Assembly (NCBI RefSeq): GCF_042739895.1
Contig: NZ_JBHYIQ010000063.1
Location: 14,471-46,470 of the forward strand
Reading direction: 5' to 3'
Source of the DNA: Amycolatopsis sp. NPDC059021
GTDB lineage: Bacteria; Actinomycetota; Actinomycetes; Mycobacteriales; Pseudonocardiaceae
Length of the DNA: 32,000 bases
Part shown: positions 1,837-17,063 of the stretch, in pieces
Numbering within the stretch: the stretch's first letter is position 1
Layout of the letters: every line of letters starts with the position of its first letter
Program-made: the position numbers and the translations under genes
The notes under the pieces: generated by a model
The model's database searches: none
Told to the model about the DNA's origin: nothing
What the model saw: only the letters and a program-made list of their open reading frames with translations

Positions 1837-2208
1837 GTGGGGGACGTCGTGGTGAGCGGCTCTTCGCCGACCGGCGACGAGCTCGTCCGGCTGCTCGGGA
1901 CGCTCGCGAATCCACACCGGCTGCGCATCGTCGCCGCGCTGCTCGCCGAACGCGCCTACGTCAGCGAGCTGGCGCGCGAGCTGCGGATCAGCCGCGCGCT
2001 CCTCCAGGTACACCTGCGCAAGCTGGAGGCGGCGGGGCTGGTGACGTCCAGTCTCGAGGTCTCGGCCGACGGCAAGGCCATGAAGTTCTACGAGGTCACG
2101 CCGTTTTCGGTCCAGCTCACCCCGCAGGCCGTCGCGGCGGCGGTACCGACACTGAGCACACCGGATTCCGTCCAGGGGGACGGCTCGGACGAGGGAGCAC
2201 GGTCATGA
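1837..2208 (+). CDS. ArsR-family winged-helix transcriptional regulator
   Basis: 123 aa. LANPHRLRIVAALLAERAYVSELARELRISRALLQVHLRKLEAAGLV is a typical ArsR/SmtB HTH. It is divergent from the P450 gene. The start is GTG 1837; GTG 1849/1852 are also possible. Confidence 0.75.
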   Translation: MGDVVVSGSSPTGDELVRLLGTLANPHRLRIVAALLAERAYVSELARELRISRALLQVHLRKLEAAGLVTSSLEVSADGKAMKFYEVTPFSVQLTPQAVAAAVPTLSTPDSVQGDGSDEGARS

Positions 2209-2453
2209 ACTGGCACCAGTGGCAGGAAATCATCGGCGTGACCGGGGTCTTCGTGCTGATCACCGTCGTGCTCACCGTCGCCATCGTGCAGCTGGCCTCG
2301 ACCTGGCGGGCCAAGGCGGCGCTGGCGCGCGAGCACGAGTACCGGGCACTGGCCGACCGGGCGACGCGGTCGCAGGAGGAGACCGAACGGCGTCTCGCGG
2401 ACGTCCAGGACCGGTTGCGCTCCATCGAGCGAGTCCTCAAGGAGGTCGAATAA
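2205..2453 (+). CDS. small single-pass membrane protein with a coiled-coil tail
   Basis: The ATG at 2205 overlaps the ArsR stop (ATGA at 2205-2208). There is one hydrophobic helix (IIGVTGVFVLITVVLTVAIVQL) followed by a charged helical tail. It lies in the frame of the listed ORF 1830..2453. Confidence 0.5.
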   Translation: MNWHQWQEIIGVTGVFVLITVVLTVAIVQLASTWRAKAALAREHEYRALADRATRSQEETERRLADVQDRLRSIERVLKEVE

Positions 2454-2475
2454 GACCGTCGGATAAGACCAAGGC

Positions 2476-2540
2476 CCTGGGCCGCCGAGCGGCAACTCGA
2501 CGGCCCAGGAGGAAGAAGCACCACCTCGCCCGAAGGCGAG
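2476..2540 (+). terminator. two stem-loops downstream of the ArsR operon (possible terminator or 5' leader of the MMPL gene)
   Basis: CCTGGGCCG (2476-2484) pairs with CGGCCCAGG (2501-2509). CTCGCC (2525-2530) pairs with GGCGAG (2535-2540) around a CGAA loop. There is no U-tract. Confidence 0.3.
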
Positions 2541-2580
2541 TCCTTACGCAGATCGCTCCTTCACGGAAGGACTTTAGTTC

Positions 2581-4761
2581 ATGCTGCCCACAGGCACCCC
2601 GGACCGGCGGGGGCCGGTGATCGAGCGGATCGCGGGCTGGTCGATCCGGCACCGCGCCGCGGTCCTCCTCGGCTGGCTCGCGCTCGTCGTGCTCGCACTG
2701 ACCGTCGGCTCGCTCGTCCCCGGTTCCAGTCTCCCCAGCTCCGACGCCGGGGAATCCGGTACGGCACAAGGGATTCTCCGCGCTCAGAACATCTACGAGC
2801 CACTGCTGGAAAACGTCCTCGTCCAACGACGTGAACAGCGCGACGACGTCGAACTCCGTTCGGCGACCGACGATCTCGTGCGCACCCTCCAGGCGTCGGG
2901 CGCGGTCACCGGTCTCCGTACGCCGGTCGACGCACCGGACGGCAGGTCGCGGCTGGTGACGTTCCAGATCACCGGCACCGACACGGAAATCCGTCCGCAT
3001 TTCACCGCGGCGAGCGCGGCCGTCGACGCCGTGGCCGCGCGGCATCCCGCGATCCTGGTGGCGCAGGCCGGGGATCTGAGCCTGAGCACCGTGGTGGACA
3101 AGAGCATCAAACAGGACATCAAGCGGTCCGAACTGATCTCGCTCCCGCTCACCGTGGTGATCCTGCTGTTCGTCTTCGGGTCGCTGATCGCCGCGTCGAT
3201 CCCGCTGCTGCTGACCGCGACCACGGTGGCCGCGACGTTCGGCTTTCTGTCCGCTGTGGACAAAGTGGTACCGATCAACAGCGCCACCACCGTGATGACG
3301 CTGCTCATCGGGACCGCGGTCGGAGTCGACTACTCATTGTTCTTCCTCCGCCGGGAACGCGAGGAACGCGCTGCCGGGCGCCCGGTCGACGACGCGATCC
3401 GGACCGCCGCCGGCACCTCGGGCCGGGTCGTGGTCGTCTCCGGGCTCACCGTCGCGTTGTGTGTGGCCGGGCTGGGTTTCACCGGGCTCGACCAGCTCCG
3501 CGGGTTCGCGATCAGCTCGATCCTGGTGGTCGGCCTGACCGTCGCCGCGTCGGTGACCGCGCTGCCCGCGCTGCTTTCGCTGCTCGGGCACTGGGTCGAC
3601 CGCGGCAGGCTGCCCTGGCTCGGCCGGCGCCGGACCACGGCCGATCATTCCCGGTTCTGGGCCAAGGTCGCCGAGGTCGTCACGCGGCGCCCGACGCTGT
3701 GGGGCGGGCTCGCCGTCGTGCTCCTCGCCGTCCTGGCGCTGCCTGCGAGCCGGATCCAGCTCCAGGCGCCGCTGGCCACGGAAAGCCTGCCGCGCAGCGT
3801 CCCGGTGATCGACGCCGCGGTACGCATGCAGGACGCCTTCCCTGGTGCGGCCATCCCCGCACACGTCGTCGTCTGGAACGAACGCGGCGGGCCGGTCGAC
3901 ACCCCGGCCGTGCGCAACGCCATCGGCGAACTCGGGGCGCGGACCGCGGGGCCGGTCGTGACGGTGTCCGTCGACCGGGCACTCGTCGTCCGGGTTCCCT
4001 TGGCGGGTAACGGTTCCCTGGCTTCCGACCAGGCACTGGGAACGCTGCGGGACCATGTGCTCCCGCAAACCCTGGGCAAGGTCGGCGGGGTCGGATTCGC
4101 CGTCGCGGGCAAGACCGCCATCGCACACGACTTCGCGGCGAAGGTGGCCGACCGGACACCCTACGTCTTCGGGTTCATCCTGCTGCTCGCGTTCGTCCTG
4201 CTATGGGCGGCGTTCCGCTCGATCGGCGTCGCGATCATGTCGATCGCGCTGAACCTGCTCTCGGTCGGCGCCGCGTACGGGGTGCTGACGTGGGTGTTCC
4301 AGGACGGGAATTTCGCGTCACTGCTGGGATTCACCCCGTACGGCGGCGTGCTCGACTGGCTCCCGGTGTTCCTGTTCGTGCTGTTGTTCGGGCTCAGCAT
4401 GGATTACCACATCTTCATCCTTAGCCGGATCCGCGAACGCTGGCTGTCCGGGATGAGCGCCCGCGACGCGATCATCGGCGGCACCGCCTCGGGGGCGGGC
4501 GTAGTCACCAGTGCGGCGGTGATCATGACCGGTGTCTTCAGCGTTTTCCTTACGCTGAGCGCGATCGAGTACAAGATGATCGGCCTCGGGATGGCGTTCG
4601 CGATCCTGCTCGACGCGACGCTGATCCGCGGGGTCCTGCTGCCCGCCGCGCTCACCGTGCTCGGGCGCCGGCTGGGGAAACCCGTCAGCCCAGCAGACCG
4701 GGACGCCGGTCCGCGAACCGTGTCGCCTGCTCGAAAGCGTGTCCGGCCCGTAGCACGCTGA
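2581..4761 (+). CDS. MMPL-family (RND superfamily) membrane transporter
   Basis: 726 aa with two repeated transmembrane bundles. Each bundle carries the conserved charged TM motif (GVDYSLFFLRRERE and LSMDYHIFILSRIRE), and each is followed by a soluble loop. Confidence 0.9.
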   Translation: MLPTGTPDRRGPVIERIAGWSIRHRAAVLLGWLALVVLALTVGSLVPGSSLPSSDAGESGTAQGILRAQNIYEPLLENVLVQRREQRDDVELRSATDDLVRTLQASGAVTGLRTPVDAPDGRSRLVTFQITGTDTEIRPHFTAASAAVDAVAARHPAILVAQAGDLSLSTVVDKSIKQDIKRSELISLPLTVVILLFVFGSLIAASIPLLLTATTVAATFGFLSAVDKVVPINSATTVMTLLIGTAVGVDYSLFFLRREREERAAGRPVDDAIRTAAGTSGRVVVVSGLTVALCVAGLGFTGLDQLRGFAISSILVVGLTVAASVTALPALLSLLGHWVDRGRLPWLGRRRTTADHSRFWAKVAEVVTRRPTLWGGLAVVLLAVLALPASRIQLQAPLATESLPRSVPVIDAAVRMQDAFPGAAIPAHVVVWNERGGPVDTPAVRNAIGELGARTAGPVVTVSVDRALVVRVPLAGNGSLASDQALGTLRDHVLPQTLGKVGGVGFAVAGKTAIAHDFAAKVADRTPYVFGFILLLAFVLLWAAFRSIGVAIMSIALNLLSVGAAYGVLTWVFQDGNFASLLGFTPYGGVLDWLPVFLFVLLFGLSMDYHIFILSRIRERWLSGMSARDAIIGGTASGAGVVTSAAVIMTGVFSVFLTLSAIEYKMIGLGMAFAILLDATLIRGVLLPAALTVLGRRLGKPVSPADRDAGPRTVSPARKRVRPVAR

Positions 4762-6094
4762 GTTCCGCGCGGTGCGCTCCGACGAGCTGCACGCCCACGG
4801 GAAGCCCGTCCGGGGTGAAGCCGGCAGGCACCGACAGCGCCGGGCTTCCCGTGGCGCTCACGAAGTACGCCGAGCTCATCCAGCCCAGATAGTCCTCCAT
4901 CGGCACGCCGTCGACCGACGCCGGGTACTCCAGCTCGGCGTCGAACGGCGGCACCTGGCTGACCGGCAGCAGCAGGACGTCGTACCGCTCGAAGAATTCC
5001 CGGGTGCGATGGAACAACGCGGTGTGCAGCACTTCGGCCCGCGCGATGTCCACACCGGACAGCCGGAGCCCTTCCCCCACGTTCTGCGCCAAGGTCGCCT
5101 TGAGCCGATCGCGGTGCTCCGCGTGGGTTTGCGCGAAACTCCACGCGCGCAAGGTGCGGAACACCTCGTCGGCGCCGGTGAAGTCGACACAGTCCCGTTC
5201 GACGTGGCAGCCGAGATCCTCGAAGGTCCGCGCAGCCCGCTCGACGACCGCGGCCACCGCCGGGTCGACCGGGAGACTGCCGCCGAGATCCGGCGACCAC
5301 GCCACGCGCAGCCCGCGCGGATCGGCCTCGAGTGGTTGCGCGAACACGGATCCCGGCGTTTCCAGCGACGTCGGATCCCGCGGATCGGGCCCTGCCATGA
5401 CCGACAGCAGCAGCGCCGCGTCGGCGACAGTGCGGGCCATCGGGCCCTTCACCGCCATCGTCGTCCACCCCATCGCGCGCGGCCAGTCCGGCACGCGACC
5501 GGGCGAGGGCCGGAAGCCGACGACGTTGCAGAACGACGCCGGGTTGCGCAGCGAACCGCCCATGTCGCTGCCGTCGGCGAGCGGGTGCATCCCGCAGGCG
5601 AGCGCGGCCGCCGCGCCGCCGCTGCTGCCGCCCGCGGACCGCGTGGGGTCGTAGGGATTGCGGGTCAGGCCGAAAACCGGGTTGAACGTGTGCGAGCCGG
5701 CGGCGAACTCGGGCACGTTCGTCTTGCCGATCGTGATGACCCCGGCCGCGCGCAGCCGTTCGACGAGCAGTTCGTCGCGCTCGGGCACGTAGTCGGCGAG
5801 CAGCGGCGAACCGTAGGTCGTGCGGATGCCCGCGGTCTCGTGACTGTCCTTGTGCGCCATGGGAATCCCGTGCAGCGGCCCGACGTCCTCGCCTGCCGCG
5901 AGCCGCTCGTCGGCCGCCGCGGCCGCACTGAGAGCGCTTTCGGCGGTGCGGGTGACGACGGCGTTGACCTGCGGGTTGACCTGCTCGATGCGGTCCAGGT
6001 GCGCCTGCGTGACCTCGCGCGCGGACACCTCCCGCGTCCGGAGCCGATCGGCGAGTTCACGAGCGGTCAGGGCGCAGATCTCGGATTCGGCCAC
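4685..6094 (-). CDS. amidase (amidase-signature family)
   Basis: 469 aa with the amidase-signature Gly/Ser-rich block GGSSGGAAAALA. Its convergent 3' end overlaps the MMPL gene by 77 nt. Confidence 0.9.
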   Translation of the reverse strand: MAESEICALTARELADRLRTREVSAREVTQAHLDRIEQVNPQVNAVVTRTAESALSAAAAADERLAAGEDVGPLHGIPMAHKDSHETAGIRTTYGSPLLADYVPERDELLVERLRAAGVITIGKTNVPEFAAGSHTFNPVFGLTRNPYDPTRSAGGSSGGAAAALACGMHPLADGSDMGGSLRNPASFCNVVGFRPSPGRVPDWPRAMGWTTMAVKGPMARTVADAALLLSVMAGPDPRDPTSLETPGSVFAQPLEADPRGLRVAWSPDLGGSLPVDPAVAAVVERAARTFEDLGCHVERDCVDFTGADEVFRTLRAWSFAQTHAEHRDRLKATLAQNVGEGLRLSGVDIARAEVLHTALFHRTREFFERYDVLLLPVSQVPPFDAELEYPASVDGVPMEDYLGWMSSAYFVSATGSPALSVPAGFTPDGLPVGVQLVGAHRAELSVLRAGHAFEQATRFADRRPGLLG

Positions 6095-6140
6095 CCGGCC
6101 ATCTGATCACCACGCCCCGGCTCACGGCAAGACCTCGGCG

Positions 6141-6608
6141 TCAGCAGCCGCAGGCGACGGCGGACACCGGCGCGGCCAGCGGGTCCGCGTCGGTCTTCCG
6201 CCGCCCGCCCGCGGAGTCCACCGGAAAGCCCTCGCGGACCCAGTACTCGTAACCGCCGATCATCTCCTTGACCCGGTAACCGAGCCGGGCGAAGGCGAGC
6301 GCGGCGCGGGTCGCGCCGTTGCAGCCGGGGCCCCAGCAGTAGGTGACCACGACGGCGTCGTGCGGGACGAGGTCGCGGGCGCGTTCGGCGATCCGCGCGG
6401 TCGGCAGGTGGAGGGCGCCGGGAATGTGCCCCTGGTCCCAGGATTCGACGCTGCGGGAGTCGACGACGACCAGGCCCGCGACGCGGGCTTCGAGGTCGGC
6501 GTGGACGTCGCTGACGTCGGCCTCGAACGCGAGGCGCCCCGCGAAGTGGGCGGCGGCCTCGGCCGGGGTGGCCGGTGAGGTGACGAGAACTGTGCTCATG
6601 GCGTTCAT
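6141..6608 (-). CDS. rhodanese-domain sulfurtransferase-like protein
   Basis: It has a rhodanese fold pattern (VVVDSRSVESWDQGHIPGALHLP) and a catalytic Cys loop (YCWGPGCNGATRAA). I start it at ATG 6608 (or 6599), because the listed N-terminal extension to 6713 is Arg-rich and overlaps the divergent gene. Confidence 0.8.
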   Translation of the reverse strand: MNAMSTVLVTSPATPAEAAAHFAGRLAFEADVSDVHADLEARVAGLVVVDSRSVESWDQGHIPGALHLPTARIAERARDLVPHDAVVVTYCWGPGCNGATRAALAFARLGYRVKEMIGGYEYWVREGFPVDSAGGRRKTDADPLAAPVSAVACGC

Positions 6609-6670
6609 CGTGCTGGGCGTGGCTCCGGGCGAACAGTGGCGTGAACGCCGCTGTTCGCTAAGATCCCGCC

Positions 6671-7648
6671 ATGCCCACGGTCTCGGTCCTGCTCTACGAC
6701 GGCATGTCCGCATTCGAACTGGGCATCGTCACCGAGGTCTTCGGCCTGCCCCGGCCGGAGTTCGACGTCGACTGGTACCGGCTGACGATCTGCTCCGCAC
6801 GTCCGGGCCCGGTGCGGGTCGTCGGCGGCGCCACGCTGCACGCCGACGGCGACCTCGACGCCTTCGCCTCGGCGACCACGGTCATCGTGCCCGGCGTCGG
6901 CGATATCCACGGCGACTGCCCGCCCGCGGTGATTTCCGCTCTACGCTTGGCTTTCCGGCGCGGCGCACGGATCGTGTCGATCTGCTCGGGCGCCTTCGCG
7001 CTAGCCGCGGCCGGACTGCTCGACGGCCGCCGCGCCGCGACACACTGGCAGTACGCCCCCGTCCTGGCACGCCGCTTCCCCCGCGTCGACGTCGACCCGG
7101 ACGTCCTCTACCTCGACGATGATCCGATCCTGACGAGCGCGGGCAGCGCCGCCGGTCTGGACCTATGCCTGCACCTGGTACGCAAGGACCACGGCCCCAC
7201 GATCGCCAACGCGGTCGCGCGCCGGCTGGTCGTCCCCGCGCACCGAGATGGTGGCCAGGCGCAGTTCATCGAATCGCCGGTGATCGCCGACGCGGACGAC
7301 AGCCGCGTCACCGCCAGCATGTCGTGGGCGCTCTCGAACCTCACGGAACCCATCACCGTCGAGACGCTCGCGCGCACCGCGAACATGTCCCCACGCAGCT
7401 ACCTCCGGCACTTCGCACGCAGCACCGGCACCAGCCCGATCCGCTGGCTCATCACCCAGCGCGTGCACGCAAGCCTGCCACTGCTGGAGAAGACCGCACT
7501 GCCGATCGACCACGTCGCCACGTCCGTCGGCTTCGACACAGCCGTGACCTACCGGCACCACTTCACGCGCACCATGCGCGTCACGCCGACGGCCTACCGC
7601 CGGAGCTTCGCCGTGTCAGGGGATGCCGGGCGACATCCCCTGACGTGA
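6671..7648 (+). CDS. GlxA-family transcriptional regulator (DJ-1/PfpI-like domain + AraC HTH)
   Basis: 325 aa. The N-terminal GATase1-like domain has the nucleophile elbow ICSGAFALAAAG. The C-terminal AraC-type double HTH reads ARTANMSPRSYLRHFARSTGTSPIRWL. Confidence 0.9.
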   Translation: MPTVSVLLYDGMSAFELGIVTEVFGLPRPEFDVDWYRLTICSARPGPVRVVGGATLHADGDLDAFASATTVIVPGVGDIHGDCPPAVISALRLAFRRGARIVSICSGAFALAAAGLLDGRRAATHWQYAPVLARRFPRVDVDPDVLYLDDDPILTSAGSAAGLDLCLHLVRKDHGPTIANAVARRLVVPAHRDGGQAQFIESPVIADADDSRVTASMSWALSNLTEPITVETLARTANMSPRSYLRHFARSTGTSPIRWLITQRVHASLPLLEKTALPIDHVATSVGFDTAVTYRHHFTRTMRVTPTAYRRSFAVSGDAGRHPLT

Positions 7649-7654
7649 CGTGAA

Positions 7655-8209
7655 TCAAGGCGCGTCGACGAGCACGCGCCCCGCGTCGGCGTTCTGCCGC
7701 ACCAGGCTTCCGGCGTAGTTCCGTTGCACCTGCGCGGCTTCCGCGGCGTTGGGTTTCGTGTTGGCGCAGCTGACGCCACCGGTGGACCCGGACATCAGCG
7801 ACGAGCACGGACCAGGCTTCCGGTCGGGCAACCCGAGGCTGTGGCCGAGCTCGTGCGAGGCGATCCGGACCTTGTTGTAGCCCTGCTGGACGGCTTCCCT
7901 GCCGTACCAGACGGTGACCTGGCCGCCGGGACGGACGGGCCCGAGCGTGGCCCGCGGCCACCCGGGATCCGCGACCACCCGGATGTTCGCGCGTTGCCCA
8001 GGAGACGCTTTCACGATGCGCACGTTGGTCACGCTGGTGTTCCAGACGTTGACGCCCTGCGCGACCACGTCCTTGAACTCCGCGGCCTGGCTGTCGTCAT
8101 AGGTGAGCGTCGTCGCGTTGATCTCGGCCGCGGCGGCGGTGGGCACCACGGTGACCGGCAACAACAGAGCAGCACCGGCCACCACGCCGGCGAATGTACG
8201 TCGAAGCAC
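7655..8209 (-). CDS. secreted snapalysin-type (M7) zinc metalloprotease
   Basis: 184 aa with an N-terminal signal peptide (AGVVAGAALLLPVTVVPTAAAA) and the HELGHSLGLPD zinc motif (HExxHxxGxxD). Confidence 0.85.
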   Translation of the reverse strand: MLRRTFAGVVAGAALLLPVTVVPTAAAAEINATTLTYDDSQAAEFKDVVAQGVNVWNTSVTNVRIVKASPGQRANIRVVADPGWPRATLGPVRPGGQVTVWYGREAVQQGYNKVRIASHELGHSLGLPDRKPGPCSSLMSGSTGGVSCANTKPNAAEAAQVQRNYAGSLVRQNADAGRVLVDAP

Positions 8210-8636
8210 GATTTACTCCTCGGGTCGGAGCGGAGCCTGTGTCGACATCAGGGACTCGTGCGGCAGCGGGCAACGCACTGTACGTGCCCCGCCAACCTCA
8301 CAGCGTGATGCTAGAACCGCCCACACCCATTCAAAACCCGCCATAAGTCGCGAAGAACAGCGGTGGCGCATGCGTCTCGCCAGACCCAAGGCTATGCCCC
8401 GGGCTCCTCGCCCGCGGTGCGGTGCTGACCCCAGGCGAACCAACCGTAGCGCCGCTCACCGAACCGGACGCGCGGGTACGACAAACGGCCTATCGCGCGG
8501 CGCACGTTCGTGTCGATGTTCAGGCTCGCCGGTTGCCTACGGCACACGGTACCTGCGAAGGTCGTCGAGCCAGTTCGCGAGCGAATTTGATCACTATTCG
8601 TTGATGTAAGTCGAGCGCGAGACACGGGGAGGGCAC

Positions 8637-9578
8637 GTGCGGGTCATGGCGGTCATGAACTACAAGGGCGGGGTAGGGAAAACAACCATCACCGCAAATC
8701 TCGGCGCGGTCGCCGCCAGTCGCGGCTTTCGTGTACTACTCATCGACCTCGACCCCCAGACCAATTTGACCTTCTCATTTTTCTCGGTCGATGAATGGCA
8801 GGACCGCCTCAAGGACAACTATACGATCCGGCAATGGTATGACGCCGAGGTGCCCGGACGAGACAGTTCACTGGCAGACCTTGTCACCACGCCGGAGCGG
8901 GTCAACAAAGTCCTCAAGAACACTGATGGAAAGCTCGACCTGATCTCCTCCCACCTCGGTCTCATCGACATAGACCTCGAACTCGCCGCGCGGCTGGGTG
9001 GGTCCACCACCCTCGACGGGTCGAAGCGAAAGTTCCTGGATCTGCATAGTTGTCTGCGACACGCGCTGGAGGACAGCCGCTTCAGCGGCTACGACCTGAC
9101 ACTCATCGACTGTGCACCGAATTTCGGCCTGGTCACCAAGACCGCTATCGCAGCCAGCGAGAAGATCCTCGTGCCGGCCAAAGCGGACTATCTGTCCACG
9201 TTGGGATTGGACTACCTGGCGGGAAATTGCGACACACTTGTGCAACAGTTCAACGCCTACGTCGACCACAAGCGCGACAATGGAAACTACCGGCCGATCG
9301 AGCCCAGCATCCTGGGCGTGGTCTTCACCATGGTTCAGATCTATTCGCAGCGAGTGACCGCCGCTCAGCATTCCTATATCGAGCAGGTAAGGCTGAATTC
9401 GCAGGTTCCCGTGCTGAACAGTACTGTCCGTAACAGTTCCCACTTCGGCGACTCTGGCGAGAATGGCGTACCGGCCATGCTGCGCGCTGCCGGCAAGGAC
9501 GACGTGGTCAGGGAGTTCGACCAGCTGGCCGACGAGGTTCTGGGTGCGCTCGCGCTGTCGCCGGGCGGCAGCCGATGA
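8637..9578 (+). CDS. ParA/Soj/MinD-superfamily ATPase
   Basis: 313 aa with the deviant Walker A KGGVGKTT (nt 8664-8687) plus LLIDLDPQ and LTLIDCAPN motifs. An SD-like GGGGAGGG sits at 8626-8633 before GTG 8637. The stop overlaps the next start (ATGA at 9575-9578). Confidence 0.9.
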   Translation: MRVMAVMNYKGGVGKTTITANLGAVAASRGFRVLLIDLDPQTNLTFSFFSVDEWQDRLKDNYTIRQWYDAEVPGRDSSLADLVTTPERVNKVLKNTDGKLDLISSHLGLIDIDLELAARLGGSTTLDGSKRKFLDLHSCLRHALEDSRFSGYDLTLIDCAPNFGLVTKTAIAASEKILVPAKADYLSTLGLDYLAGNCDTLVQQFNAYVDHKRDNGNYRPIEPSILGVVFTMVQIYSQRVTAAQHSYIEQVRLNSQVPVLNSTVRNSSHFGDSGENGVPAMLRAAGKDDVVREFDQLADEVLGALALSPGGSR

Positions 9579-10354
9579 GCGAACTGAAGAGTTTTGTTCT
9601 CCTGCAGGCCAGGTTGTACGAGTTCCTGGCGCAACAAGACGAAACCACCCTGCAGGCGATCGTCAGTGGAGCAGCGGAACTGGCTGTTCTTCGCACCGAC
9701 GACGCACGAGCACCCGACAGCTTCGTCCCTCGCGAAGAGGTACGAAGCACTTCGCGCTCGGCATCAGCTGACCCCACCAGACCGTCCTCCGATGACCCAT
9801 ACCAGGCTGCGCGGGACCTCTCGGAGCTGACATCGGAACAGGAACGGCGACTCTACTTGAACGCGACCGGGCTGCCCGTGGCAGGACTACGGCAAGTCGC
9901 CAAGTTACGTGGCTTGGCCCGTTACAGCAGACTCAGTCGCGCCAAGCTCATAAACCTACTGGTCAGCCACGGACTGGATCAGCCCGAAGTGTTCGCGGAT
10001 CAAGCGAAGACCCCGACGCCTCCCTCCTCGGAGTCGGTCGACAGCAACTCGGAGGCCGAACCGCAAGCCACCCCCCAAGAAGCCGAGCCGTCGACCGCAG
10101 CGCCGTCGGCTGGAACCGCAACCCCAACTGCCGATGTGGCGGCCATCGCCTCGCGCTTACGTGAAACCGAGACCGAGGAAGAGGGCGCCGCGTACCTCCA
10201 CGCGCTGCGGCTGGACCGAGAGGCCCTGCTCGCTGTCGCTGCCGAGTTGCTGCTCACACGCGTGGATCGCCTGAGCCGAAAGGAACTCGAGAAGAGAGTC
10301 CTCAAACAGGCGATCGGTGCTCGGCGCAAGTTCGCCGGGCTACGGAAGTGGTGA
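9575..10354 (+). CDS. hypothetical protein with two Rho_N/SAP-like helix-extended-helix repeats and a Pro/Ser/Thr/Glu-rich linker
   Basis: 259 aa. Repeat 1 (aa 78-133) reads ..EQERRLYLNATGLPVAGLRQVAKLRGLARYSRLSRAKLINLL. Repeat 2 (aa 188-246) reads ..EEEGAAYLHALRLDREALLAVAAELLLTRVDRLSRKELEKRVL. The gene is coupled to both neighbours. Confidence 0.7.
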   Translation: MSELKSFVLLQARLYEFLAQQDETTLQAIVSGAAELAVLRTDDARAPDSFVPREEVRSTSRSASADPTRPSSDDPYQAARDLSELTSEQERRLYLNATGLPVAGLRQVAKLRGLARYSRLSRAKLINLLVSHGLDQPEVFADQAKTPTPPSSESVDSNSEAEPQATPQEAEPSTAAPSAGTATPTADVAAIASRLRETETEEEGAAYLHALRLDREALLAVAAELLLTRVDRLSRKELEKRVLKQAIGARRKFAGLRKW

Positions 10355-10360
10355 GCACTG

Positions 10361-11773
10361 GTGACCGACGAGACGACGGTAGGACGAGGCCAGGAGACCA
10401 GCGGCCGCTCGATGTACCTCATCGGTGGTCGCCGCGTCAGGATTTCAGACCTGCTGGACGCCGGTCTGATACGAGCCGGTACCAAGCTCAGGTTCAAGCG
10501 CAACCGTATCGGCGTGACCTACGACGCGACCGTAACCGAGCAGGGGAAAATCCGGCTCGATCCCGGCGGCGAGGAAATCCGCTCACCGTCGCGGGCGGCC
10601 ATGGTGGCAGCCAACATGCGTGCTGTCGACGGCTGGCGGGCGTGGCTGGTTGTCGACCAGAACCGGTTGCTGGACGCCGTGCGCCAGGAATTTCTCGATC
10701 GAGCAATTTCGACAGTGGCGACCGCGGCCAACCGGCAAACCGAGGACAAAGACCGCCAACGCATCCATACGCGGTTGAGGCAGGCGCGCAGTCGCGCCGA
10801 CGAGCACGACCCGGAGAGCATCTCCGTCCGCGAACTTCTGTCGCTCTGGGGAGCGAAGGATCGTGGCGACCAGGTCAGTCAGATTGAAGCGGACCTGGCC
10901 AACCACGGGCTGACGACGTCGCCCAGTTTCCGGGCGGTGACTCTCGACACGATGATTTCGCTGACCACACCGCTCGACGAAGCGGAGGACACCGCAGCGG
11001 CTGAGTCGCCCGAGATCGACGACATCCCGGGCGCTGAGGATGACGAGGAAGGTAACGACCTGAATGTCCGCCTGACGGTGGGGAACCTGTCCCCTCTTAG
11101 CGGCGTGGAGTTCGTCGAAGTCAACAGCACGCTTAAAGAAGCGATCACGAAGATGCTTCTCAATGACTTCTCTCAGCTCGCTGTCCTCAATGGCCCTCGT
11201 AACCTGCGCGGCGCCGTGACCTGGCGCTCGATCGCACAGGCGATGCATCGGAAATCGGACGCGAGCGTCGCCGATGCAATCGTCGCTCATGTGGAAGCCG
11301 TCGCGTACGATCGTGACCTCTTCGACGTCCTTCCCACCCTGCTACAGCGGGAGTTCGTGTTCGTCCGGGACGAAACCAAGGTCATCAAGGGCATTGTCAC
11401 GACAGCGGACGTGGCGCAGCGCTACGGCGAGATGGCCACCCCTTTCTTTCAGCTGGGCGAGCTGGATCAAACACTTCGCTGGGTCTTGAACCGCGCCTTC
11501 GACCTTCAGACCATCCGACCGCTTTGCAGCAGGAAAATCACCAGCTTCGATGATCTCACCTTCGGTGACTACCAACGCGTTCTGGAGAGCACGGGCCTGT
11601 GGGAAAAGCTGGGCTGGCCGTTGGACCGTTCTTACTTCGTCTCCCGGCTGGAGGAGATCCGGCTCATTCGCAACAAGGTCATGCACTTCCACCCCGACCC
11701 GGTACCCGAGGACGCGATCGACAAGCTACGGACCTTCAACAGCATGCTGCACCGATACCGCGATCCGGCGTAA
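10361..11773 (+). CDS. RAMA-like domain + CBS pair + C-terminal HEPN (Swt1-like) predicted RNase
   Basis: 470 aa. aa 26-97 (ISDLLDAGLIRAGTKL...SPSRAA...VDGWRAWLV) match the RAMA/DUF4357-like pattern. aa 237-355 hold two CBS motifs. aa 358-465 are helical and carry the Rx4H motif RNKVMH (nt 11669-11686). The start is GTG 10361 or ATG 10412. Confidence 0.8.
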   Translation: MTDETTVGRGQETSGRSMYLIGGRRVRISDLLDAGLIRAGTKLRFKRNRIGVTYDATVTEQGKIRLDPGGEEIRSPSRAAMVAANMRAVDGWRAWLVVDQNRLLDAVRQEFLDRAISTVATAANRQTEDKDRQRIHTRLRQARSRADEHDPESISVRELLSLWGAKDRGDQVSQIEADLANHGLTTSPSFRAVTLDTMISLTTPLDEAEDTAAAESPEIDDIPGAEDDEEGNDLNVRLTVGNLSPLSGVEFVEVNSTLKEAITKMLLNDFSQLAVLNGPRNLRGAVTWRSIAQAMHRKSDASVADAIVAHVEAVAYDRDLFDVLPTLLQREFVFVRDETKVIKGIVTTADVAQRYGEMATPFFQLGELDQTLRWVLNRAFDLQTIRPLCSRKITSFDDLTFGDYQRVLESTGLWEKLGWPLDRSYFVSRLEEIRLIRNKVMHFHPDPVPEDAIDKLRTFNSMLHRYRDPA

Positions 11774-11804
11774 TCAGCCGACACCTACCCAACGTGACCA
11801 CCCA

Positions 11805-11858
11805 GGGGTCCGGGGCTTGCCCCCAAACGGGGTGTGGGGTTTGCACCTTCACAAAACA
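11805..11858. repeat. bipartite repeat, copy A (partner at 27758-27813)
   Basis: GGGGTCCGGGGC (11805-11816), an 18-nt GC-rich self-complementary spacer, TGGGGTTTGCACC (11835-11847), then AAAACA (11853-11858). The same blocks occur in the same order and spacing at 27.8 kb. Confidence 0.45.
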
Positions 11859-11871
11859 CGCGGAACGCAAA

Positions 11872-11900
11872 AGGCTCGTGCTCTCCGCGAGCACGAGCCT
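11872..11900. terminator. perfect 12-bp stem-loop (terminator-like)
   Basis: AGGCTCGTGCTC-tccgc-GAGCACGAGCCT. On the minus strand it is followed by TTTT, so it is a possible terminator for the BREX operon. It could also act for the plus-strand three-gene operon, but without a U-tract. Confidence 0.45.
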
Positions 11901-11905
11901 CCTAG

Positions 11906-12346
11906 CGTGGACCTTGGGGAACTTACTACAACACAAAAACCCAGGTAGAAGCCCTGGAGGCCCTACTCCAGGAACTACCAGACTCCACCGAACCGACTCC
12001 ACCACCCGTCGACCGACTCAAACTTCGACGGGCACGCCAGCTCGACGCGGACGAGGCCCAGGCACTCATCGCCGCCTACCAAGCCGGAGCCACGGTGTAT
12101 AAGCTGGGTGCCCGGTTCGGAATCGAACGGCGGACGGCCAGCAACATCCGCAAACAACACGACGTGTCGATACGCAGATGCGGCCTCTCGCCCGAGCAGA
12201 TCGACCACGCCATCCACCTCTATAACCTCGGTCGACCCCTCGCCCGAGTCGGCGAACACCAGGGCGTCCACCACACCACCGTACTGACCAAACTCCGCGA
12301 ACGTGGTATTCCCACCCGGGACACCCATGGACGCCCACGGGCTTGA
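11906..12346 (+). pseudogene. double-HTH (resolvase/HTH_7-like) protein remnant lacking a plausible start
   Basis: The frame is open from 11906 and encodes ..LDADEAQALIAAYQAGATVYKLGARFGIERRTASNIRK.. and ..LSPEQIDHAIHLYNLGRPLARVGEHQGVHHTTVLTKLRERGI.. The only ATG/GTG/TTG start (GTG 12095) falls inside the first HTH unit. Confidence 0.45.
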
Positions 12347-12406
12347 TCTGACCATGCCTTCCTTCTCCTGTTGCTGGCGGGCGAACTCCAGGCGCTTGAC
12401 CCGAGA

Positions 12407-14554
12407 TCAGGCACCGATGCTGTGGTCCGCATTGTCCAAAGCACGAAGATACGTGACGCCAAAGGCCTTGATCTCGCGGTGTTTCTGGTACCTCGTGGCG
12501 AGATCGAACGGACCGTCACTCGTGCGCTGGAAGATGTCGAGGCCGCGCCCGAGCAGGATTTTCCAGCCGGTATCGGTGCTGATCGAGCGGTCGTGGACCG
12601 ACTGGGGATCGACGAAATCGACGTCGAAGACGATGCCAAGCGCGGCTGTGCTCTGCTTGATCTGCACGAGGTACTCGTACTGCTTCTGCAGCTTCTCCCG
12701 GCCGTCCTGGTTCTCGACCGTGATGAGCTTGATCGCAACCTCGTCCGCGGGGTCCTTGCCGCGAGCGATCGCCTCGGCGAGCTCCATCAGGTTCCTGGCT
12801 TGGTGGAACAGGCGCACGTAGGGATCAACGATCGTGATCTGCGAGGCACCCTGCAAGTACGGGACCAGCAGCATGTCATACGAGACGCCAATTTGACCTT
12901 CTTGGTACTCTCGATGTCCCTGAAACAATTCAGGCTTGGACTGTGTGACCTTGTCAGGGTCAGCAGTGCCAGCGGACGCCGCGCCCGCTCCCCGCAGATC
13001 TGCGTTTGCCGGTGCCTCAACCGGATCACTGCCCTTGCGCACCCGGTGGTAGTGCGCGGGGTACTCGTCCTCCTCACGCGTAGCGACGGTGTACCAGGTG
13101 CCTTCCTTGTCGAGGTAACCGAACTTCACCTCGGCCATGGTCGAGTCGATGCGCAGAATCTGGTCCTTGACGCGTTTACGTCCCTCGATGGCGATCCGTA
13201 GGAGTTCCTCGATCTCCTTTCGGGTGGCCTCGCCGCCTGGATAGAGGATCTTCATCAGGCCGGAGAAGGTCTTGTGAATACCGTCGCGGTCACGGGTCGA
13301 GATGTCGGACGATAGCGTGAAGTGCTGCTGGTAGCGGTCGGAGTAGTCCTGCGAGCGCATCGACTTGAGAACTTCGGCGATGTAGTCGACGACGAACCCG
13401 TAGCCGTCGGAGAACATCTCGCCACGGATGATGTCCACCTCCCAGCCGGGGATGTAGTGGTGCAACCGGTCGAGGTAGGCCGGGTCGTGGTAGGCCTCAG
13501 GCAGTTCGTCGAACAGGTCGGAGTGCCTGAGCATGTACGGCACGGTGTGCGAGGTGTTACCGACGAATACCATCGACGCCTCGGCGCCCAGCGTCTCGAC
13601 ACCACGGGAGAACGATTTGTTCGCCATGTAGTTCTTCATGATGTCGACAAGCGCCTTGTCCGTGCGCTTCTTCTTGCCGGCGAACTCGTCGAAAGCGACG
13701 ACGTCCCAGTAGCCGACAAGGCCGATGCGTCCGTTGGAGTTGTTGACGAAGAGCTTGGGGACGGTAACCTCGCCACCGGATACCAACATTCCGTGGGGCG
13801 AGAACTCCGAGAAGATGTGGGACTTGCCCGTCCCCTTGGGGCCGAGCTCGACCAGGTTGTAGTTGCGCTCGACGAACGGAATCAGACGCACGAGCTGGAA
13901 GAACTTCCCCCGCCTGCTGAACATCTCGGGGTTGAACCCGATCGATTGCATAAGCAGGTCGATCCACTCGTCGGTGGTGAATCCGCGCCGCCCCTCGAGG
14001 TACTGGTCGACATCGAACCTCGACAGCTGAATAGGCTTGATCGAGCCGAGGATCCAAGGTGCGACACGCTGGTCATCGCTGTGGAAGTATTCGATATCGC
14101 AGATACACCAGACGCCACCAACGAGGAGCTTGGGGTGCGCCTTGATCGTTGGCGACTCGACGACCACGCCCATGATGCCGAGGTTGGCGAACTCGGCTTG
14201 ATAGACATCAGCCTTCTCATTGAGGGTGACGGTGACCTTATCAATGATCCGGTGGCGACCGCGCTCTTTGATCGTGGACTTGACCAGCTCGGACTCGCTG
14301 CGATGGACATAGTGTTCGGCGAGGATCTTGCGCACGGTGTCGATGCCAGCCTGGATGGTGGCTTCGTCATCCGAGGCTGCATATTGCCCAAGGAGGTATT
14401 CGAGGACATAGGACGGCACGACGGCGTTGCCCTTGACGGTCTTGACCAGGTCCTTGCGGACGACGACTCCGGGGAACAGCAGGTTGATCTTGTAGTCGAG
14501 ATCGCTCTGCTGCGGTGCGCCGGCGTCGGGCGCCTCGTTCTGGGTCTCGCTCAT
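12407..14554 (-). CDS. brxL: BREX type 1 BrxL (Lon-like protease/AAA+ protein)
   Basis: 715 aa and the last gene of the operon. Walker A GPKGTGKS is at nt 13820-13843. Size and position match BrxL. An SD GGAGGGGA precedes ATG 14554. Confidence 0.9.
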   Translation of the reverse strand: MSETQNEAPDAGAPQQSDLDYKINLLFPGVVVRKDLVKTVKGNAVVPSYVLEYLLGQYAASDDEATIQAGIDTVRKILAEHYVHRSESELVKSTIKERGRHRIIDKVTVTLNEKADVYQAEFANLGIMGVVVESPTIKAHPKLLVGGVWCICDIEYFHSDDQRVAPWILGSIKPIQLSRFDVDQYLEGRRGFTTDEWIDLLMQSIGFNPEMFSRRGKFFQLVRLIPFVERNYNLVELGPKGTGKSHIFSEFSPHGMLVSGGEVTVPKLFVNNSNGRIGLVGYWDVVAFDEFAGKKKRTDKALVDIMKNYMANKSFSRGVETLGAEASMVFVGNTSHTVPYMLRHSDLFDELPEAYHDPAYLDRLHHYIPGWEVDIIRGEMFSDGYGFVVDYIAEVLKSMRSQDYSDRYQQHFTLSSDISTRDRDGIHKTFSGLMKILYPGGEATRKEIEELLRIAIEGRKRVKDQILRIDSTMAEVKFGYLDKEGTWYTVATREEDEYPAHYHRVRKGSDPVEAPANADLRGAGAASAGTADPDKVTQSKPELFQGHREYQEGQIGVSYDMLLVPYLQGASQITIVDPYVRLFHQARNLMELAEAIARGKDPADEVAIKLITVENQDGREKLQKQYEYLVQIKQSTAALGIVFDVDFVDPQSVHDRSISTDTGWKILLGRGLDIFQRTSDGPFDLATRYQKHREIKAFGVTYLRALDNADHSIGA

Positions 14555-14567
14555 CGCAGCTCCCCTC

Positions 14568-17063
14568 CTAGAAGTCGAAGTCCGACGCGAACGAACGCTT
14601 CAGCGTGTAGGCCGCCCTGCGGAAGACTCGCCACTGGTTGGTGTTGGGGATCCGCTCCTCCAGGCGGAACTCCACGGCTCGGTTGTTGTAGCCGCTCGAC
14701 TCCTGACTGAGCAGCATCCGGGCGCTCTGGTACCGGTCGCGCTTGTCGGCCGAGGTCTGATCGAAGGTCAGGTCGACGAGGTTGGAGATCAGAGTCTCGC
14801 CGACGTAGAGCCCGGCCCTCAGCGTGCGGGGCCGGACCTTGTCGCTGACTGGCTCGGTCTGGAAGAGCCGGACGACGACCTGCCCGGTGGTGATCTTGTC
14901 GGATTCCGGCCAGACCTCGACGTTGACCAGCCGGGTGTCGCTCTTACGCTTCTTGTTGACCGCCAGAACCGGCACGACGATCTCTTGAAGCGCCGCCCCG
15001 CCGTGGACGAAGCGCGAGCCGCCACCGGGCAGCTTCAGCCGGTGGATCGACTTGGGGATCTGTACTTCCAGGTCGCTCTCAAGCCCGAGCTGGGCGGCGT
15101 CGAAGGCGGCGAAGGCAGTGTCGACCTTGAGGCCGTTGCCCAGCACGAAGCGTCGTTTGACGACCTTGATGTCATCGCCCTGCGGCTGAGTCGACAGGAA
15201 GAATGTGTCGGCCAGCTCCTCATCCTGGAACAGGAAGCCATGGTCGGCCGTGACGAAGATATTGGTGGCGTTGGCGCTGGCCAACTTCTTCACCAGGTCG
15301 ACGATATCGCGCAATGTGTCATCGACGGCTTCGAAAGTCTTACGCTCGGTAATGTGACTGTCGCCCGTAGCATCGATCTGATTGTGGTAGACGTACAGAA
15401 CCCGGTTGGCCTTGTACAGCTCGCGCCGCTCGTCAGCGTTCAAGGCCTTGAATTCCTCGGCCTGGATCGCCGAGCCGCCGACACCCCCCAGGATCTTGCC
15501 GCGGAAGGCGGTGTTGTTGGTCGGCTGGCCGTCGGCCATTACGGTCTTGGCGTCAAGCGAATGCTTAAGCGTCGAATGCGGCAGCAGCGCCGCCATGCCG
15601 AGCTGGGTGTAGCTCGGCAGCACTCCGAGGACGGCGTCCAGGTTGGCATCGAAGCGGTCCTCCTGCCGGATGAGTGAGCCAAGCTCGTCGGCCACTTCGT
15701 AGCGCAAGGCATCAGAGATGATGACCACGGCCTTCTTGTCGCCGTCCCGCACCAGCGGCTCGACGTAGCGAGAGTAGAAGGCGGCCTGCGAAGGCAGCAT
15801 CGTCGAGCGCCACCGCTCAACTTGGTCGAGCTGCTGCTGCCAGGCGTTACCCAGCTCGTAGACGTACTTGTTGGTGTAGCGCTTCTCAACCACCTCGCGC
15901 AGCGCTTCGAGGGGCTTCGGGTACTCCGCCGTGCGGGCAGCATAGACAAACTGCCGGTAGAGCTGGTCGATGCGGAACCACTCGCGTCGGTAGCGCTCCA
16001 ACCCGTCGTCGAACGACTCCATGCCGAGATTCAGCGAGGCTAGCTCGCCGAGCAGCTTCGACGCCCGGGCAACGGCTGTGTATAGCTGCTTGTAGTTGTC
16101 GATCCAGAAGCTGTTCTGCCGAGCCCGGACCGTCTCGTCCACCTCGCGCGGGGTGACAGTCTGTTCGGCTACCGCCCGCCCCAGGTCGCTGATGATCTTC
16201 TGGTCGGTCTCTTCGAACAAGTCGACGGTTACCAGGTCACGGAAGCTCGTGTCCTCGATCCTCGACTTGTAGTCCAGGTCGTGGGCTGCCCGCTTGGCAA
16301 GCGTGGCCATGGCCGCCTGACTACGCCGGTCGTTGCGCAGGCTGGCGAAGTCGAGCTGGATGTTCCGCAGTCCGCCCTGGCGGTCGGACTTGAAACCCTC
16401 GATGGCCTTAAGGAAGATCCACAACACCAGGTCGTCGATGCTCGGCGAGGACGACTCGTAGCCGTAGATGCTGGCGACGCCGCGCCAGTAGAAGTCATCA
16501 AGGCCATAGTCGACGAGAGCGTCGTACTTGGCGTGAGCCCCCTTGGCGTTCTCCGTCAGTAACGTCCTGGTGATCTCCAGCAGACTATGCTCGCGTTGGC
16601 CAAGCACGACAGCGCTGATCTTGGCTCGCAACCTGACAGCGTCGTCCTCCGAGCTCAGCAGTGCCTTGAGACTGTGGACGCGCTTGGCCGCGTTGAAGAA
16701 CTTCTCGTGGGTCTGGACGACCTCGTCGATACCCTGGCCGACCAAGCCCAGGTCCTGAGCCACCAGAGCCGTGCGGTCGGCCGTGAAGACTCCATAGGCC
16801 AGCTCCAGATCGAGCAGCCAATTCCCGATGCCACTCGGCACCGGCCCTGAACGGTAGACGAGAAATTTGCCCTTAGGCTCGTCACGCAGCAGCCGGTTCT
16901 TGATACCGAACTCGTCATTAGAAACCCGGATCGTCTGGACACCCGGCAGGTCGAGACTGTCCAGATCCTCGATGTACTGACCATCCGGGTCGTGCCAGAA
17001 GACAATCCGGCGGCTGTCAAACCAGCGCAGCAGGTGCGGGCGGACCGAAGTAACGTCACTCAT
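14568..17063 (-). CDS. pglZ: BREX PglZ (alkaline-phosphatase-superfamily protein)
   Basis: About 831 aa with PglZ-domain motifs VVIISDALRYEV and IFVTADHGFLF. ATG 17063 overlaps the pglX stop (ATGAGTGA). The listed TTG 17075 is less likely. Confidence 0.92.
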   Translation of the reverse strand: MSDVTSVRPHLLRWFDSRRIVFWHDPDGQYIEDLDSLDLPGVQTIRVSNDEFGIKNRLLRDEPKGKFLVYRSGPVPSGIGNWLLDLELAYGVFTADRTALVAQDLGLVGQGIDEVVQTHEKFFNAAKRVHSLKALLSSEDDAVRLRAKISAVVLGQREHSLLEITRTLLTENAKGAHAKYDALVDYGLDDFYWRGVASIYGYESSSPSIDDLVLWIFLKAIEGFKSDRQGGLRNIQLDFASLRNDRRSQAAMATLAKRAAHDLDYKSRIEDTSFRDLVTVDLFEETDQKIISDLGRAVAEQTVTPREVDETVRARQNSFWIDNYKQLYTAVARASKLLGELASLNLGMESFDDGLERYRREWFRIDQLYRQFVYAARTAEYPKPLEALREVVEKRYTNKYVYELGNAWQQQLDQVERWRSTMLPSQAAFYSRYVEPLVRDGDKKAVVIISDALRYEVADELGSLIRQEDRFDANLDAVLGVLPSYTQLGMAALLPHSTLKHSLDAKTVMADGQPTNNTAFRGKILGGVGGSAIQAEEFKALNADERRELYKANRVLYVYHNQIDATGDSHITERKTFEAVDDTLRDIVDLVKKLASANATNIFVTADHGFLFQDEELADTFFLSTQPQGDDIKVVKRRFVLGNGLKVDTAFAAFDAAQLGLESDLEVQIPKSIHRLKLPGGGSRFVHGGAALQEIVVPVLAVNKKRKSDTRLVNVEVWPESDKITTGQVVVRLFQTEPVSDKVRPRTLRAGLYVGETLISNLVDLTFDQTSADKRDRYQSARMLLSQESSGYNNRAVEFRLEERIPNTNQWRVFRRAAYTLKRSFASDFDF

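Follow-up and report, generated by a model that had tools for sequence, protein, structure and literature searches.

A 32,000-nucleotide stretch of DNA from Amycolatopsis sp. NPDC059021 (contig NZ_JBHYIQ010000063.1, positions 14,471 to 46,470 of the forward strand), hereinafter the window, carries a cassette of three co-directional genes, g1, g2 and g3, for which we favor, at a probability of roughly 0.55, the reading that it is a self-contained operon specifying a multi-component defense or abortive-infection module of the DS-11 type, working by a mechanism that we infer. Comparison with the DS-11 family shows g3 to consist, at the level of its sequence, of a RAMA domain joined to a complete DS-11-like protein. 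Upstream of it, g1 codes for a ParA/Soj-type ATPase and g2 for a cassette-specific helical protein with the features of an adaptor. The genes and the parts of g3 that bear on this reading are arranged in the window as follows (aa, amino acids):

8637-9578, plus strand: g1, 313 aa, GTG start
9575-10354, plus strand: g2, 259 aa, ATG start
10361-11773, plus strand: g3, 470 aa, GTG start
10400-10702, plus strand: RAMA domain of g3, predicted reader of (modified) DNA, aa 14-114
~10808-10972, plus strand: small domain of g3 between the RAMA domain and an acidic linker, aa ~150-204
11078-11410, plus strand: CBS pair of g3, ~aa 240-350, F270 occupying the place of Y157 in DS-11
11411-11761, plus strand: all-alpha C-terminal domain of g3, assigned as HEPN, ~aa 351-467

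DS-11 is a one-protein anti-phage system combining CBS and HEPN domains that was validated in Escherichia coli; its defense is lost in Y157A, a mutant of the CBS part, and in HEPN catalytic mutants, and its authors propose that the CBS region gates the HEPN nuclease via the binding of an adenine derivative (DeWeirdt et al., DefensePredictor, Science 2026, PMC13092281). The supplement of that work lists the protein as WP_000257686.1, encoded by a 1098-nucleotide (nt) gene, with the mutants R330A, H335A and Y157A (PMC13092281), and an E. coli open reading frame (ORF) of 365 aa in our set (L046:5992-7089) agrees with this residue numbering. Against the NCBIfam equivalog model of the family (NF053863, 'DS11_antiphage, CBS domain-containing anti-phage protein'), g3 reaches 279.1 bits where the cut-off is 260, and its aa 157-463 span the whole profile (positions 1-305 of 305). 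In BLASTP, aa 130-464 of g3 align with aa 4-357 of the 365-aa E. coli protein at 32% identity (E 6e-52), and the alignment places R437 at R330, H442 at H335 and F270 at Y157. R437, N438 and H442 are invariant in all 46 homologues compared, and the column of residue 270, where an aromatic side chain would stack on adenine, is aromatic in 44 of them (F in 27, Y in 17, V in the other 2). Because the equivalog score, the full-length alignment and the matching functional residues all point the same way, g3 is read as a RAMA domain followed by a whole DS-11-like protein: it has the N-terminal small domain, the acidic linker, the CBS pair and the C-terminal RNxxxH domain of DS-11. This membership also supports the proposal of the sequence-only reading, an earlier account of this DNA, that g3 is a ligand-gated HEPN-type effector of a defense family.

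The individual domains of g3 differ in how readily they are recognized. The RAMA domain matches its Pfam profile (PF18755) at 4.7e-21, with 75.2 bits versus a gathering cut-off of 35.2; Foldseek recovers the complex of MPND with DNA (7ydw) at a TMt of 0.79, and D90, G91, W92 and W95 are invariant. It is also the only part of g3 that matches in PADLOC-DB v2 (PDC-S14, 9.6e-14, aa 25-114). The CBS pair is detected by Pfam (1e-07), and Foldseek matches it to many CBS pairs with bound adenosyl ligands at E ~3e-5. An acidic, disordered linker separates it from the small domain, which matches no family, recurs at the N-terminus of E. coli DS-11, has the densest invariant residues in g3 (V156, R157, W163, R168, D170, E176, N181-G183, P188 and F190-D196) and might serve to bind a target or a trigger. 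The C-terminal domain is all-helical in the AlphaFold2 (AF2) model and bears the RNxxxH motif as RNKVMH (aa 437-442, nt 11669-11686). The RAMA domain, the CBS pair and this motif, all claimed earlier from the sequence, are confirmed. None of the Pfam HEPN families matches g3 at E<=1, and a weak match to Ribonuc_2-5A (KEN), with E 0.037, is seen in the HEPN region of a Streptomyces homologue (L047).

The RAMA-bearing form of g3 belongs to a conserved unit. Scanning a single genome of each species gave 44 loci (loci and further sequences are cited by L and P numbers), and in 42/42 actinomycete genome loci a g1 and a g2-type ORF lie directly upstream of g3 in the same order and on the same strand. 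These loci come from Amycolatopsis, Nocardia, Actinophytocola, Saccharopolyspora, Actinoalloteichus, Fodinicola, Actinoplanes, Dactylosporangium and metagenome-assembled genomes (MAGs), all hosts found being filamentous actinomycetes, and nine metagenome contigs found via g2 display the same arrangement as far as each extends. Identity to the window ranges from 54 to 81% for g1 and from 33 to 59% for g2 across the 42 loci; that of g2 is weakest in Micromonosporaceae, and in L030 g2 has no tblastn match and is seen by ORF clustering only. The identities of g1 and g3 correlate (r = 0.88), and the g1/g2 junction is throughout either an ATGA-type overlap or a gap of <=~15 nt. All three genes appear intact at 39 of the 42 loci, with pseudogenization at 3/42: in L037 g1 has three stops and g3 an internal deletion, i.e., the two have decayed jointly, and in L003 g1 appears frameshifted with g3 intact. 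The expectation that ParA-like and Rho_N-like genes would be conserved neighbors of g3 homologues is borne out by this survey, and the view of g1, g2 and g3 as one functional unit is supported, as far as comparative genomics goes, by the invariable co-occurrence, the correlated divergence and the joint decay in L037.

In contrast to these loci, six of six DS-11-like genes lacking a RAMA domain are without g1 and g2 (L043, L044 and L046-L049; from two Chthoniobacterales MAGs, E. coli, a Rhizobium plasmid, Methylobacterium and a Streptomyces plasmid). Since all RAMA-less genes lack both partners, the RAMA domain, g1 and g2 appear to have joined the DS-11 core together. The cassette thereby departs from DS-11 proper, a stand-alone gene for which one protein without obligatory partners suffices, in the additional N-terminal RAMA domain and the strict linkage to g1 and g2, as well as in its filamentous actinomycete hosts and in that it is known here from sequence alone. 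Two of the RAMA-less genes have noteworthy features of their own. The protein of Streptomyces sp. NBC_01445 (L047:5419-7098, on a 1-Mb linear plasmid, no g1/g2 nearby) is a DS-11-like CBS-HEPN protein with a different N-terminal extension of ~150 aa in place of the RAMA domain (MIRAGADGE...GDIIVLPL...GYLTGDYQYRAD...), which Pfam does not recognize; this suggests that the DS-11 core might accept alternative N-terminal sensor domains. The gene on the conjugative plasmid pR132505 of Rhizobium leguminosarum (L048, 2379-15347) has neighbors annotated as NYN-domain, PIN-like, two ATP-binding and radical SAM proteins, in what looks like a defense island.

Turning to the partners, g1 carries the deviant Walker A motif KGGVGKTT at aa 10-17, as previously noticed, and matches the Pfam families AAA_31 (3.7e-34) and CbiA (1.1e-19), with Soj/ParA as its best relatives in the PDB. 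As in type Ib ParABS systems, it is a small deviant-Walker-A ATPase without an N-terminal helix-turn-helix (HTH). It lies far below all the partition equivalog cut-offs of NCBIfam (e.g., ParA_partition, 72 versus 180), and in PADLOC-DB v2 it has only a 35-residue match over the Walker A region to PDC-M28B (1.2e-4). The motifs KGGVGKTT, DLDPQ, DC.PN (Walker B, D167) and VPAK.DYLS do not vary among 36 g1 orthologues, and because these catalytic motifs are so retained, g1 is probably enzymatically active.

As aligned and as modelled by AF2, the product of g2 opens with a helical hairpin (aa 2-31). Two four-helix modules that resemble each other, the first of them Rho_N-like, span aa 75-132 and aa 188-257 (pLDDT >90); two disordered linkers rich in Pro, Ser, Thr, Ala and Glu (pLDDT <50) set these parts off from one another, and an invariant basic tail, KQAIGARRKFAGLRKW, closes the C-terminal region (aa 188-259). 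The sequence-only reading had seen two Rho_N repeats here: the two similar modules stand in the model, and the Rho_N match itself is sub-threshold (E 0.012, 16 bits versus the Pfam cut-off of 24.9). About one third of the g2 homologues have a precomputed PF07498 match. A fold search against the PDB returned nothing significant, the best local match being to 43 residues of the Rho N-terminal domain (2a8v; probability 0.47); family profile searches found no ParB, ribbon-helix-helix (RHH) or HTH match, and PADLOC-DB v2 none at all. The C-terminal module (…LRETETEEEGAAYL…LLAVAAEL.LTR..RLS..ELE.RV.KQAIGARRKFAGLRKW; aa 188-259, window 10136-10354) is a widespread portable domain of actinomycete proteins. 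An exhaustive profile search for it yields 673 proteins at E<=1e-3, many having this module only; it may stand alone as a protein of ~75-80 aa, form the C-terminal end of an unrelated protein as long as ~760 aa, or be repeated in tandem (P0257), with carriers including L059-L063, P0257, P0281, P0282, P0288, P0290 and P0306. Some carriers have repeated winged-HTH-like units, and a Pfam scan of the large proteins bearing the module recognized no families in the fusion partners. In L059 the module lies upstream of genes for a membrane protein and a lytic transglycosylase, and five metagenome contigs, all short (1.0-3.4 kb), carry it without a g1 or g3 match.

The families to which these parts belong suggest how they might work together. 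CBS pairs bind adenosyl ligands, and HEPN domains of the Rx4-6H type typically act as RNase dimers. Dimers of ATP-bound ParA associate with DNA non-specifically and are switched when a partner stimulates hydrolysis, and modules of the Rho_N/HeH type bind nucleic acid. The conserved basic terminal peptide of g2 resembles the peptides with which partner proteins stimulate such ATPases. The RAMA domain, in turn, is a predicted reader of adenine-modified DNA and belongs typically to contexts of the restriction type (Iyer, Zhang & Aravind 2016, PMC4738411). All three parts added to the DS-11 core are, by family, DNA-associated. In the mechanism that we propose, the CBS pair would bind an adenine nucleotide or a derivative and gate a dimeric HEPN RNase, as proposed for DS-11, and RNA cleavage by the activated g3 would arrest the infected cell. 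The products of g1 and g2 might hold, tether or load the RAMA-bearing effector on DNA, and might thereby couple a DNA-level cue, such as foreign or differently modified DNA or the loss of the nucleoid, to the release or activation of the RNase. The switch could lie in the hydrolysis of ATP by g1, which the invariant basic tail of g2 might stimulate. A more far-reaching version, which we offer tentatively as a possibility and no more, would make this the first defense system built around a ParA-type ATPase, in which a DNA-bound surveillance complex of ParA, HeH-type adaptor and RAMA domain senses what DNA is present or in what state it is, and signals to a CBS-gated HEPN RNase. If true, it would link DNA recognition to abortive infection at the RNA level, and the acquisition of the RAMA domain, g1 and g2 would illustrate the upgrade of the one-protein DS-11 to a multi-component sensor.

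The genomic setting of the cassette bears on both its origin and its alternatives. Two further features of the window enter here:

27865-27938, minus strand: tRNA-Ala(cgc)
25350-12407, minus strand: complete type 1 BREX operon (BrxA, BrxB, BrxC, PglX, PglZ, BrxL)

Several observations of the sequence-only reading on this layout hold. The three ORFs are co-directional, g1 and g2 overlapping in an ATGA at 9575-9578 and the g2 stop codon (TGA, 10352-10354) being followed by a 6-nt gap (GCACTG, 10355-10360) before the GTG of g3 at 10361; the six BREX genes adjoin the cassette; and the G+C content (GC) of the cassette, 0.617, is below that of the core flanks at 1-8209 (0.704) and 27939-32000 (0.711). 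The GC of the BREX block, 0.613, is like that of the cassette, and by base composition the cassette does lie inside a tRNA-Ala island; the comparative data, on the other hand, make the low-GC tract composite. The cassette occupies the same chromosomal site in many Amycolatopsis, with an MMPL transporter and its neighbors on the left and a gene of unrecognized type, a GNAT gene and MoeA on the right. In L006, L012, L015 and L018 the tRNA-Ala(cgc) gene follows ~50 nt past the g3 stop, and in L002, L004 and L024 it lies ~3 kb past g3, the insert in L002 being a Fic/SoFic-type gene. In the window 16 kb intervene between g3 and the tRNA gene (11774-27864), with a frameshifted second RAMA gene and two HTH sequences, a fragment and an HTH_17 ORF, in addition to BREX. 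These comparisons are read most simply if the g3-tRNA slot is a variable cargo site in Amycolatopsis and its relatives, empty in four species and occupied by small inserts in three, and if BREX is a later insertion, since the tRNA gene follows g3 so closely in four relatives. At 0/42 loci is BrxL, PglZ, PglX or BrxC found within 10 kb of the cassette, and the BREX survey paper does not list it; judged from these genomes, the adjacency of cassette and BREX in this one is incidental.

At the syntenic site, g1 is 75-81% and g3 67-78% identical to the window versus 62-69% for MMPL and 81-94% for MoeA among the core neighbors, which fits vertical inheritance in Amycolatopsis, next to tRNA-Ala(cgc). 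In L012, L015 and L018 the left-flank genes of the window (clusters 3, 16, 8 and 10) come after the cassette and its right flank and have the inverted orientation, a sign of a chromosomal inversion, one of whose breakpoints lies immediately upstream of the cassette. A different pattern is seen between genera. The Fodinicola g1 and g3 share 79% and 76% identity with those of the window, as against 46% for a shared neighbor; the flanks are unrelated in Nocardia, Actinoplanes, Dactylosporangium and Fodinicola; and cassette GC is below both flanks at 29/37 loci. The identity gap, the unrelated flanks and the low GC therefore imply that the cassette also moves horizontally between genera as a three-gene unit. 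All 42 loci lie on chromosomal-size contigs. The full-length form of g3 was found in 0/72,556 plasmid records, a collection with few plasmids of these genera, and g3 has no matches among the phage records of INPHARED (50,697) or in IMG/VR.

Several points weigh against the defense reading. Only the E. coli protein, 32% identical, is known to act against phage, and the roles proposed for g1, g2 and the RAMA domain are drawn from knowledge of their families. The HEPN fold that the earlier account had assigned to g3 is not recovered: the whole-chain Foldseek search against the PDB is dominated by CBS matches, and a profile search against PDB sequences found only CBS. The C-terminal module of g2 is not a dedicated ParA partner, because many unrelated proteins carry it without ParA. 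It is unusual, too, for defense genes to be retained vertically for long at a single site with core-like divergence. Moreover, the anticipated enrichment of defense genes around the homologues is weak: of 276 representative proteins encoded within 5 kb of the cassette, ~13-16 have a PADLOC match at E<1e-10, a count made without a random-locus control and to which no claim of enrichment is attached, and most neighbors are ordinary metabolic or regulatory genes, such as those for P450s, TetR or LysR regulators and glyoxalases. The PADLOC matches comprise type IV restriction endonuclease (REase), PD-Lambda-1, SoFic, MADS components, ApeA, AriA, AbiEi, WYL regulators and some PDC candidates, and defense neighbors occur at a minority of loci (BREX in the window, a type IV REase or Mrr_cat gene, Fic/SoFic in L002).

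This setting would suit a chromosomal regulator outside defense, namely a nucleoid-associated RNase that senses adenine nucleotides and tunes RNA stability in relation to energy, stress or development, with ParA and the adaptor positioning it. The retention beside tRNA-Ala in many Amycolatopsis species at core-like divergence, the predominance of ordinary neighbors with few PADLOC matches in the flanks, and the restriction to filamentous actinomycetes would all be in keeping with such a role, and CBS-HEPN fusions were first predicted as ligand-responsive regulators of RNA stability (PMC3710099). We nevertheless regard it as rather unlikely, given that g3 passes the equivalog cut-off of a validated anti-phage family, that RAMA domains typify restriction-type contexts, that the cassette has GC below its flanks at most loci and is pseudogenized at some, and that its distribution is patchy, with unrelated sites outside Amycolatopsis and cross-genus identities far above those of its neighbors. 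The same strict co-occurrence that supports one functional unit could alternatively denote an addiction module, with g3 as the HEPN toxin and g1, helped by g2, as the antitoxin, persisting through post-segregational or stress-triggered killing. The tight coupling of an upstream ATPase to a downstream HEPN gene and the joint decay in L037 are as expected of such a pair, and a computational precedent from 2013 places the ATPase of ParA/Soj-HEPN dyads in the antitoxin position (PMC3710099). However, the CBS-HEPN core seems to control itself, because the RAMA-less DS-11 relatives work without a partner, the E. coli protein having given defense when cloned alone; L003, with its apparently frameshifted g1 and intact g3, is hard to square with an essential antitoxin; and no plasmid copies were found. 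A toxin-antitoxin role is accordingly a quite unlikely account of the whole, and the two roles, toxin-antitoxin and abortive infection, are not mutually exclusive.

The least probable accounts, to which we give very little credence, are those that dissolve the unit or subordinate it to BREX: that g1 and g2 are a relic partition pair left next to an unrelated solo toxin, or that the cassette is a BREX accessory guarding methylation by PglX. The former, which the sequence-only reading had raised as its alternative, draws on g1 being a bona fide ParA/Soj-family protein, and the latter, which it had also suggested, on the abutting BREX operon and the second, decayed RAMA gene within the BREX block. 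The leftover pair is refuted by the co-occurrence at every locus, with its correlated divergence, together with the lack of full-length plasmid, phage or viral-contig copies and of centromere-like repeats, and g2 shows no ParB, RHH or HTH similarity; the BREX guard finds no comparative support, with BREX genes within 10 kb of the cassette at none of the 42 loci and BREX being the later arrival. A multi-component DS-11-type module thus remains the reading that we prefer.

No model in Pfam, NCBIfam or PADLOC-DB v2 covers all three genes, which is also the outcome of the check with PADLOC models that had been advised earlier, and no description of a ParA protein with a Rho_N-like adaptor and a RAMA-CBS-HEPN protein was found in the searchable literature. 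Accordingly, the label 'undescribed' holds for the three-gene combination and not for the CBS-HEPN core of g3, which is the named and validated DS-11. What is new is the multi-gene architecture, i.e., the RAMA form with g1 and g2; it is neither a wholly new system nor a BREX accessory. Its parts have precedents in DS-11 (2025/2026), in the CBS-HEPN fusions and ParA/Soj-HEPN dyads (2013) and in the RAMA-nuclease fusions (2016). The dyads, with HEPN proteins of the MAE_18760 family, and the CBS-HEPN fusions were noted computationally (Anantharaman et al., PMC3710099), and the cassette likewise has a ParA/Soj-type ATPase upstream of an Rx4-6H HEPN protein in one operon. The dyads, themselves a computational prediction only, differ by their published description in being two genes, with a HEPN domain of another family fused to RES-NTD1, Toprim-NTD1 or Schlafen domains, whereas the cassette adds the adaptor gene and the RAMA-CBS-HEPN effector. 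With ParABS/ParG and with the ParA/MinD-type cargo pairs (McdA-McdB) it shares a translationally coupled, small and largely disordered partner, g2; unlike ParABS it lacks centromere repeats, a ParB, RHH or HTH partner fold and a plasmid location, and unlike either its third gene is a predicted RNase effector and not a cargo or replicon. The fusion of RAMA to a nuclease-type effector recalls the RAMA proteins of restriction contexts (PMC4738411), MPND (7ydw) and PDC-S14 of PADLOC, but there the usual partners are DNA endonucleases, methylases and McrB-type ATPases, as opposed to a CBS-gated HEPN domain and a ParA partner. Finally, as in HEPN-MNT toxin-antitoxin systems and other HEPN effectors of abortive infection, an Rx4-6H HEPN effector would be inactive until triggered; the cassette has no MNT nucleotidyltransferase, and control is presumably exerted by the fused CBS pair along with g1 and g2.

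The strict linkage of a RAMA domain, a ParA ATPase and a HeH-type adaptor to this core offers a handle on what the recently validated DS-11 family senses, and it raises the prospect that immunity may draw on ATPases of the ParA type, whose roles known to date are segregation and cargo positioning. The analysis also corrects the labels of hundreds of actinomycete genes currently given as 'CBS domain-containing protein', 'hypothetical protein' or 'ParA family protein'. More generally, proximity to BREX in a single genome is no evidence of functional coupling.

Outside its coding sequence, the cassette is bounded by two elements:

8455-8636, plus strand: non-coding leader/promoter region of the cassette, conserved across genera
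11873-11899, plus strand: perfect 11-bp GC-rich hairpin GGCTCGTGCTC-TCCGC-GAGCACGAGCC, 100 nt past the g3 stop

The leader is alignable over ~190 nt among Amycolatopsis, Actinophytocola, Fodinicola and a MAG, though their flanks are unrelated (compared in the window and L001, L004, L006, L009, L018, L033 and L038). Its conserved blocks are TACGACAAACGGCC, GCACGTTCGTGTCGATG, GGTTGCnT...TCTGCGAAGGTCGTC and GAATTTGATCA, and a further block, CGAGACACGGGGAG, contains the Shine-Dalgarno sequence. A search against Rfam gave no match, and a structured RNA or riboswitch was rejected as a candidate on this ground together with a z of 0.09 and an unfavorable alifold covariation term (+1). For want of evidence of RNA structure or an Rfam match we read the leader as a promoter or operator, and because it is conserved across genera with unrelated flanks, the cassette thus appears to bring its own control region. 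A scan of 8150-8700, upstream of g1, for centromere-like iterated repeats found short repeats at chance level only, the conserved leader being free of iterons, and a scan for consensus sigma-70 promoters and T-tract terminators was uninformative, the host being a high-GC actinomycete. The invariant blocks of the leader include GATC within GAATTCGATCA and TTGCnT...CTGCnAnnGTC. A second group of loci (L017, L019, L025, L026, L034, L035 and L039) has the TACAAACGG block at a distance of only ~30 nt from the start codon, which gives the impression of a ~150-nt deletion. At the other end, the hairpin at 11873-11899 is a likely terminator without a T-tract; having no T run it is not called by the consensus terminator scan, and a comparable hairpin lies between g3 and the tRNA-Ala gene in L012.

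The decayed mobility genes that had been reported next to the cassette are not supported: no integrase is found anywhere in the low-GC tract of 8.2-27.9 kb, and in place of integrase or transposase remnants there are only the HTH_23 fragment, the HTH_17 ORF and the frameshifted RAMA gene. A duplication of the 3' end of the tRNA-Ala gene as an att site around the BREX insert was likewise not detected, the best local alignment scoring 29 versus a shuffle maximum of 32, which is non-significant; a weak, non-significant similarity (GGGGTCCGGGGC...TGGGGTTGCACC) is present at both slot edges (11805-11848 and 27758-27801). The HTH_23-type fragment (11936-12346, plus strand) lies between g3 and brxL and is possibly a recombinase or regulator remnant, and the HTH_17 ORF (excisionase/MerR-like; 25307-25546, minus strand) lies just upstream of brxA, so that the two small HTH ORFs flank the BREX operon on either side. 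The second RAMA-domain gene (26427-27262, plus strand), apparently frameshifted, is located within the BREX insert between brxA and the tRNA-Ala gene. Its ORF at 26981-27259 matches Pfam RAMA (8.1e-14) only from profile position 30 on, and the preceding ORF at 26427-27005, in another frame, ends in ...ITLRDLMLRACLHLGNL, which resembles the start of a RAMA domain.

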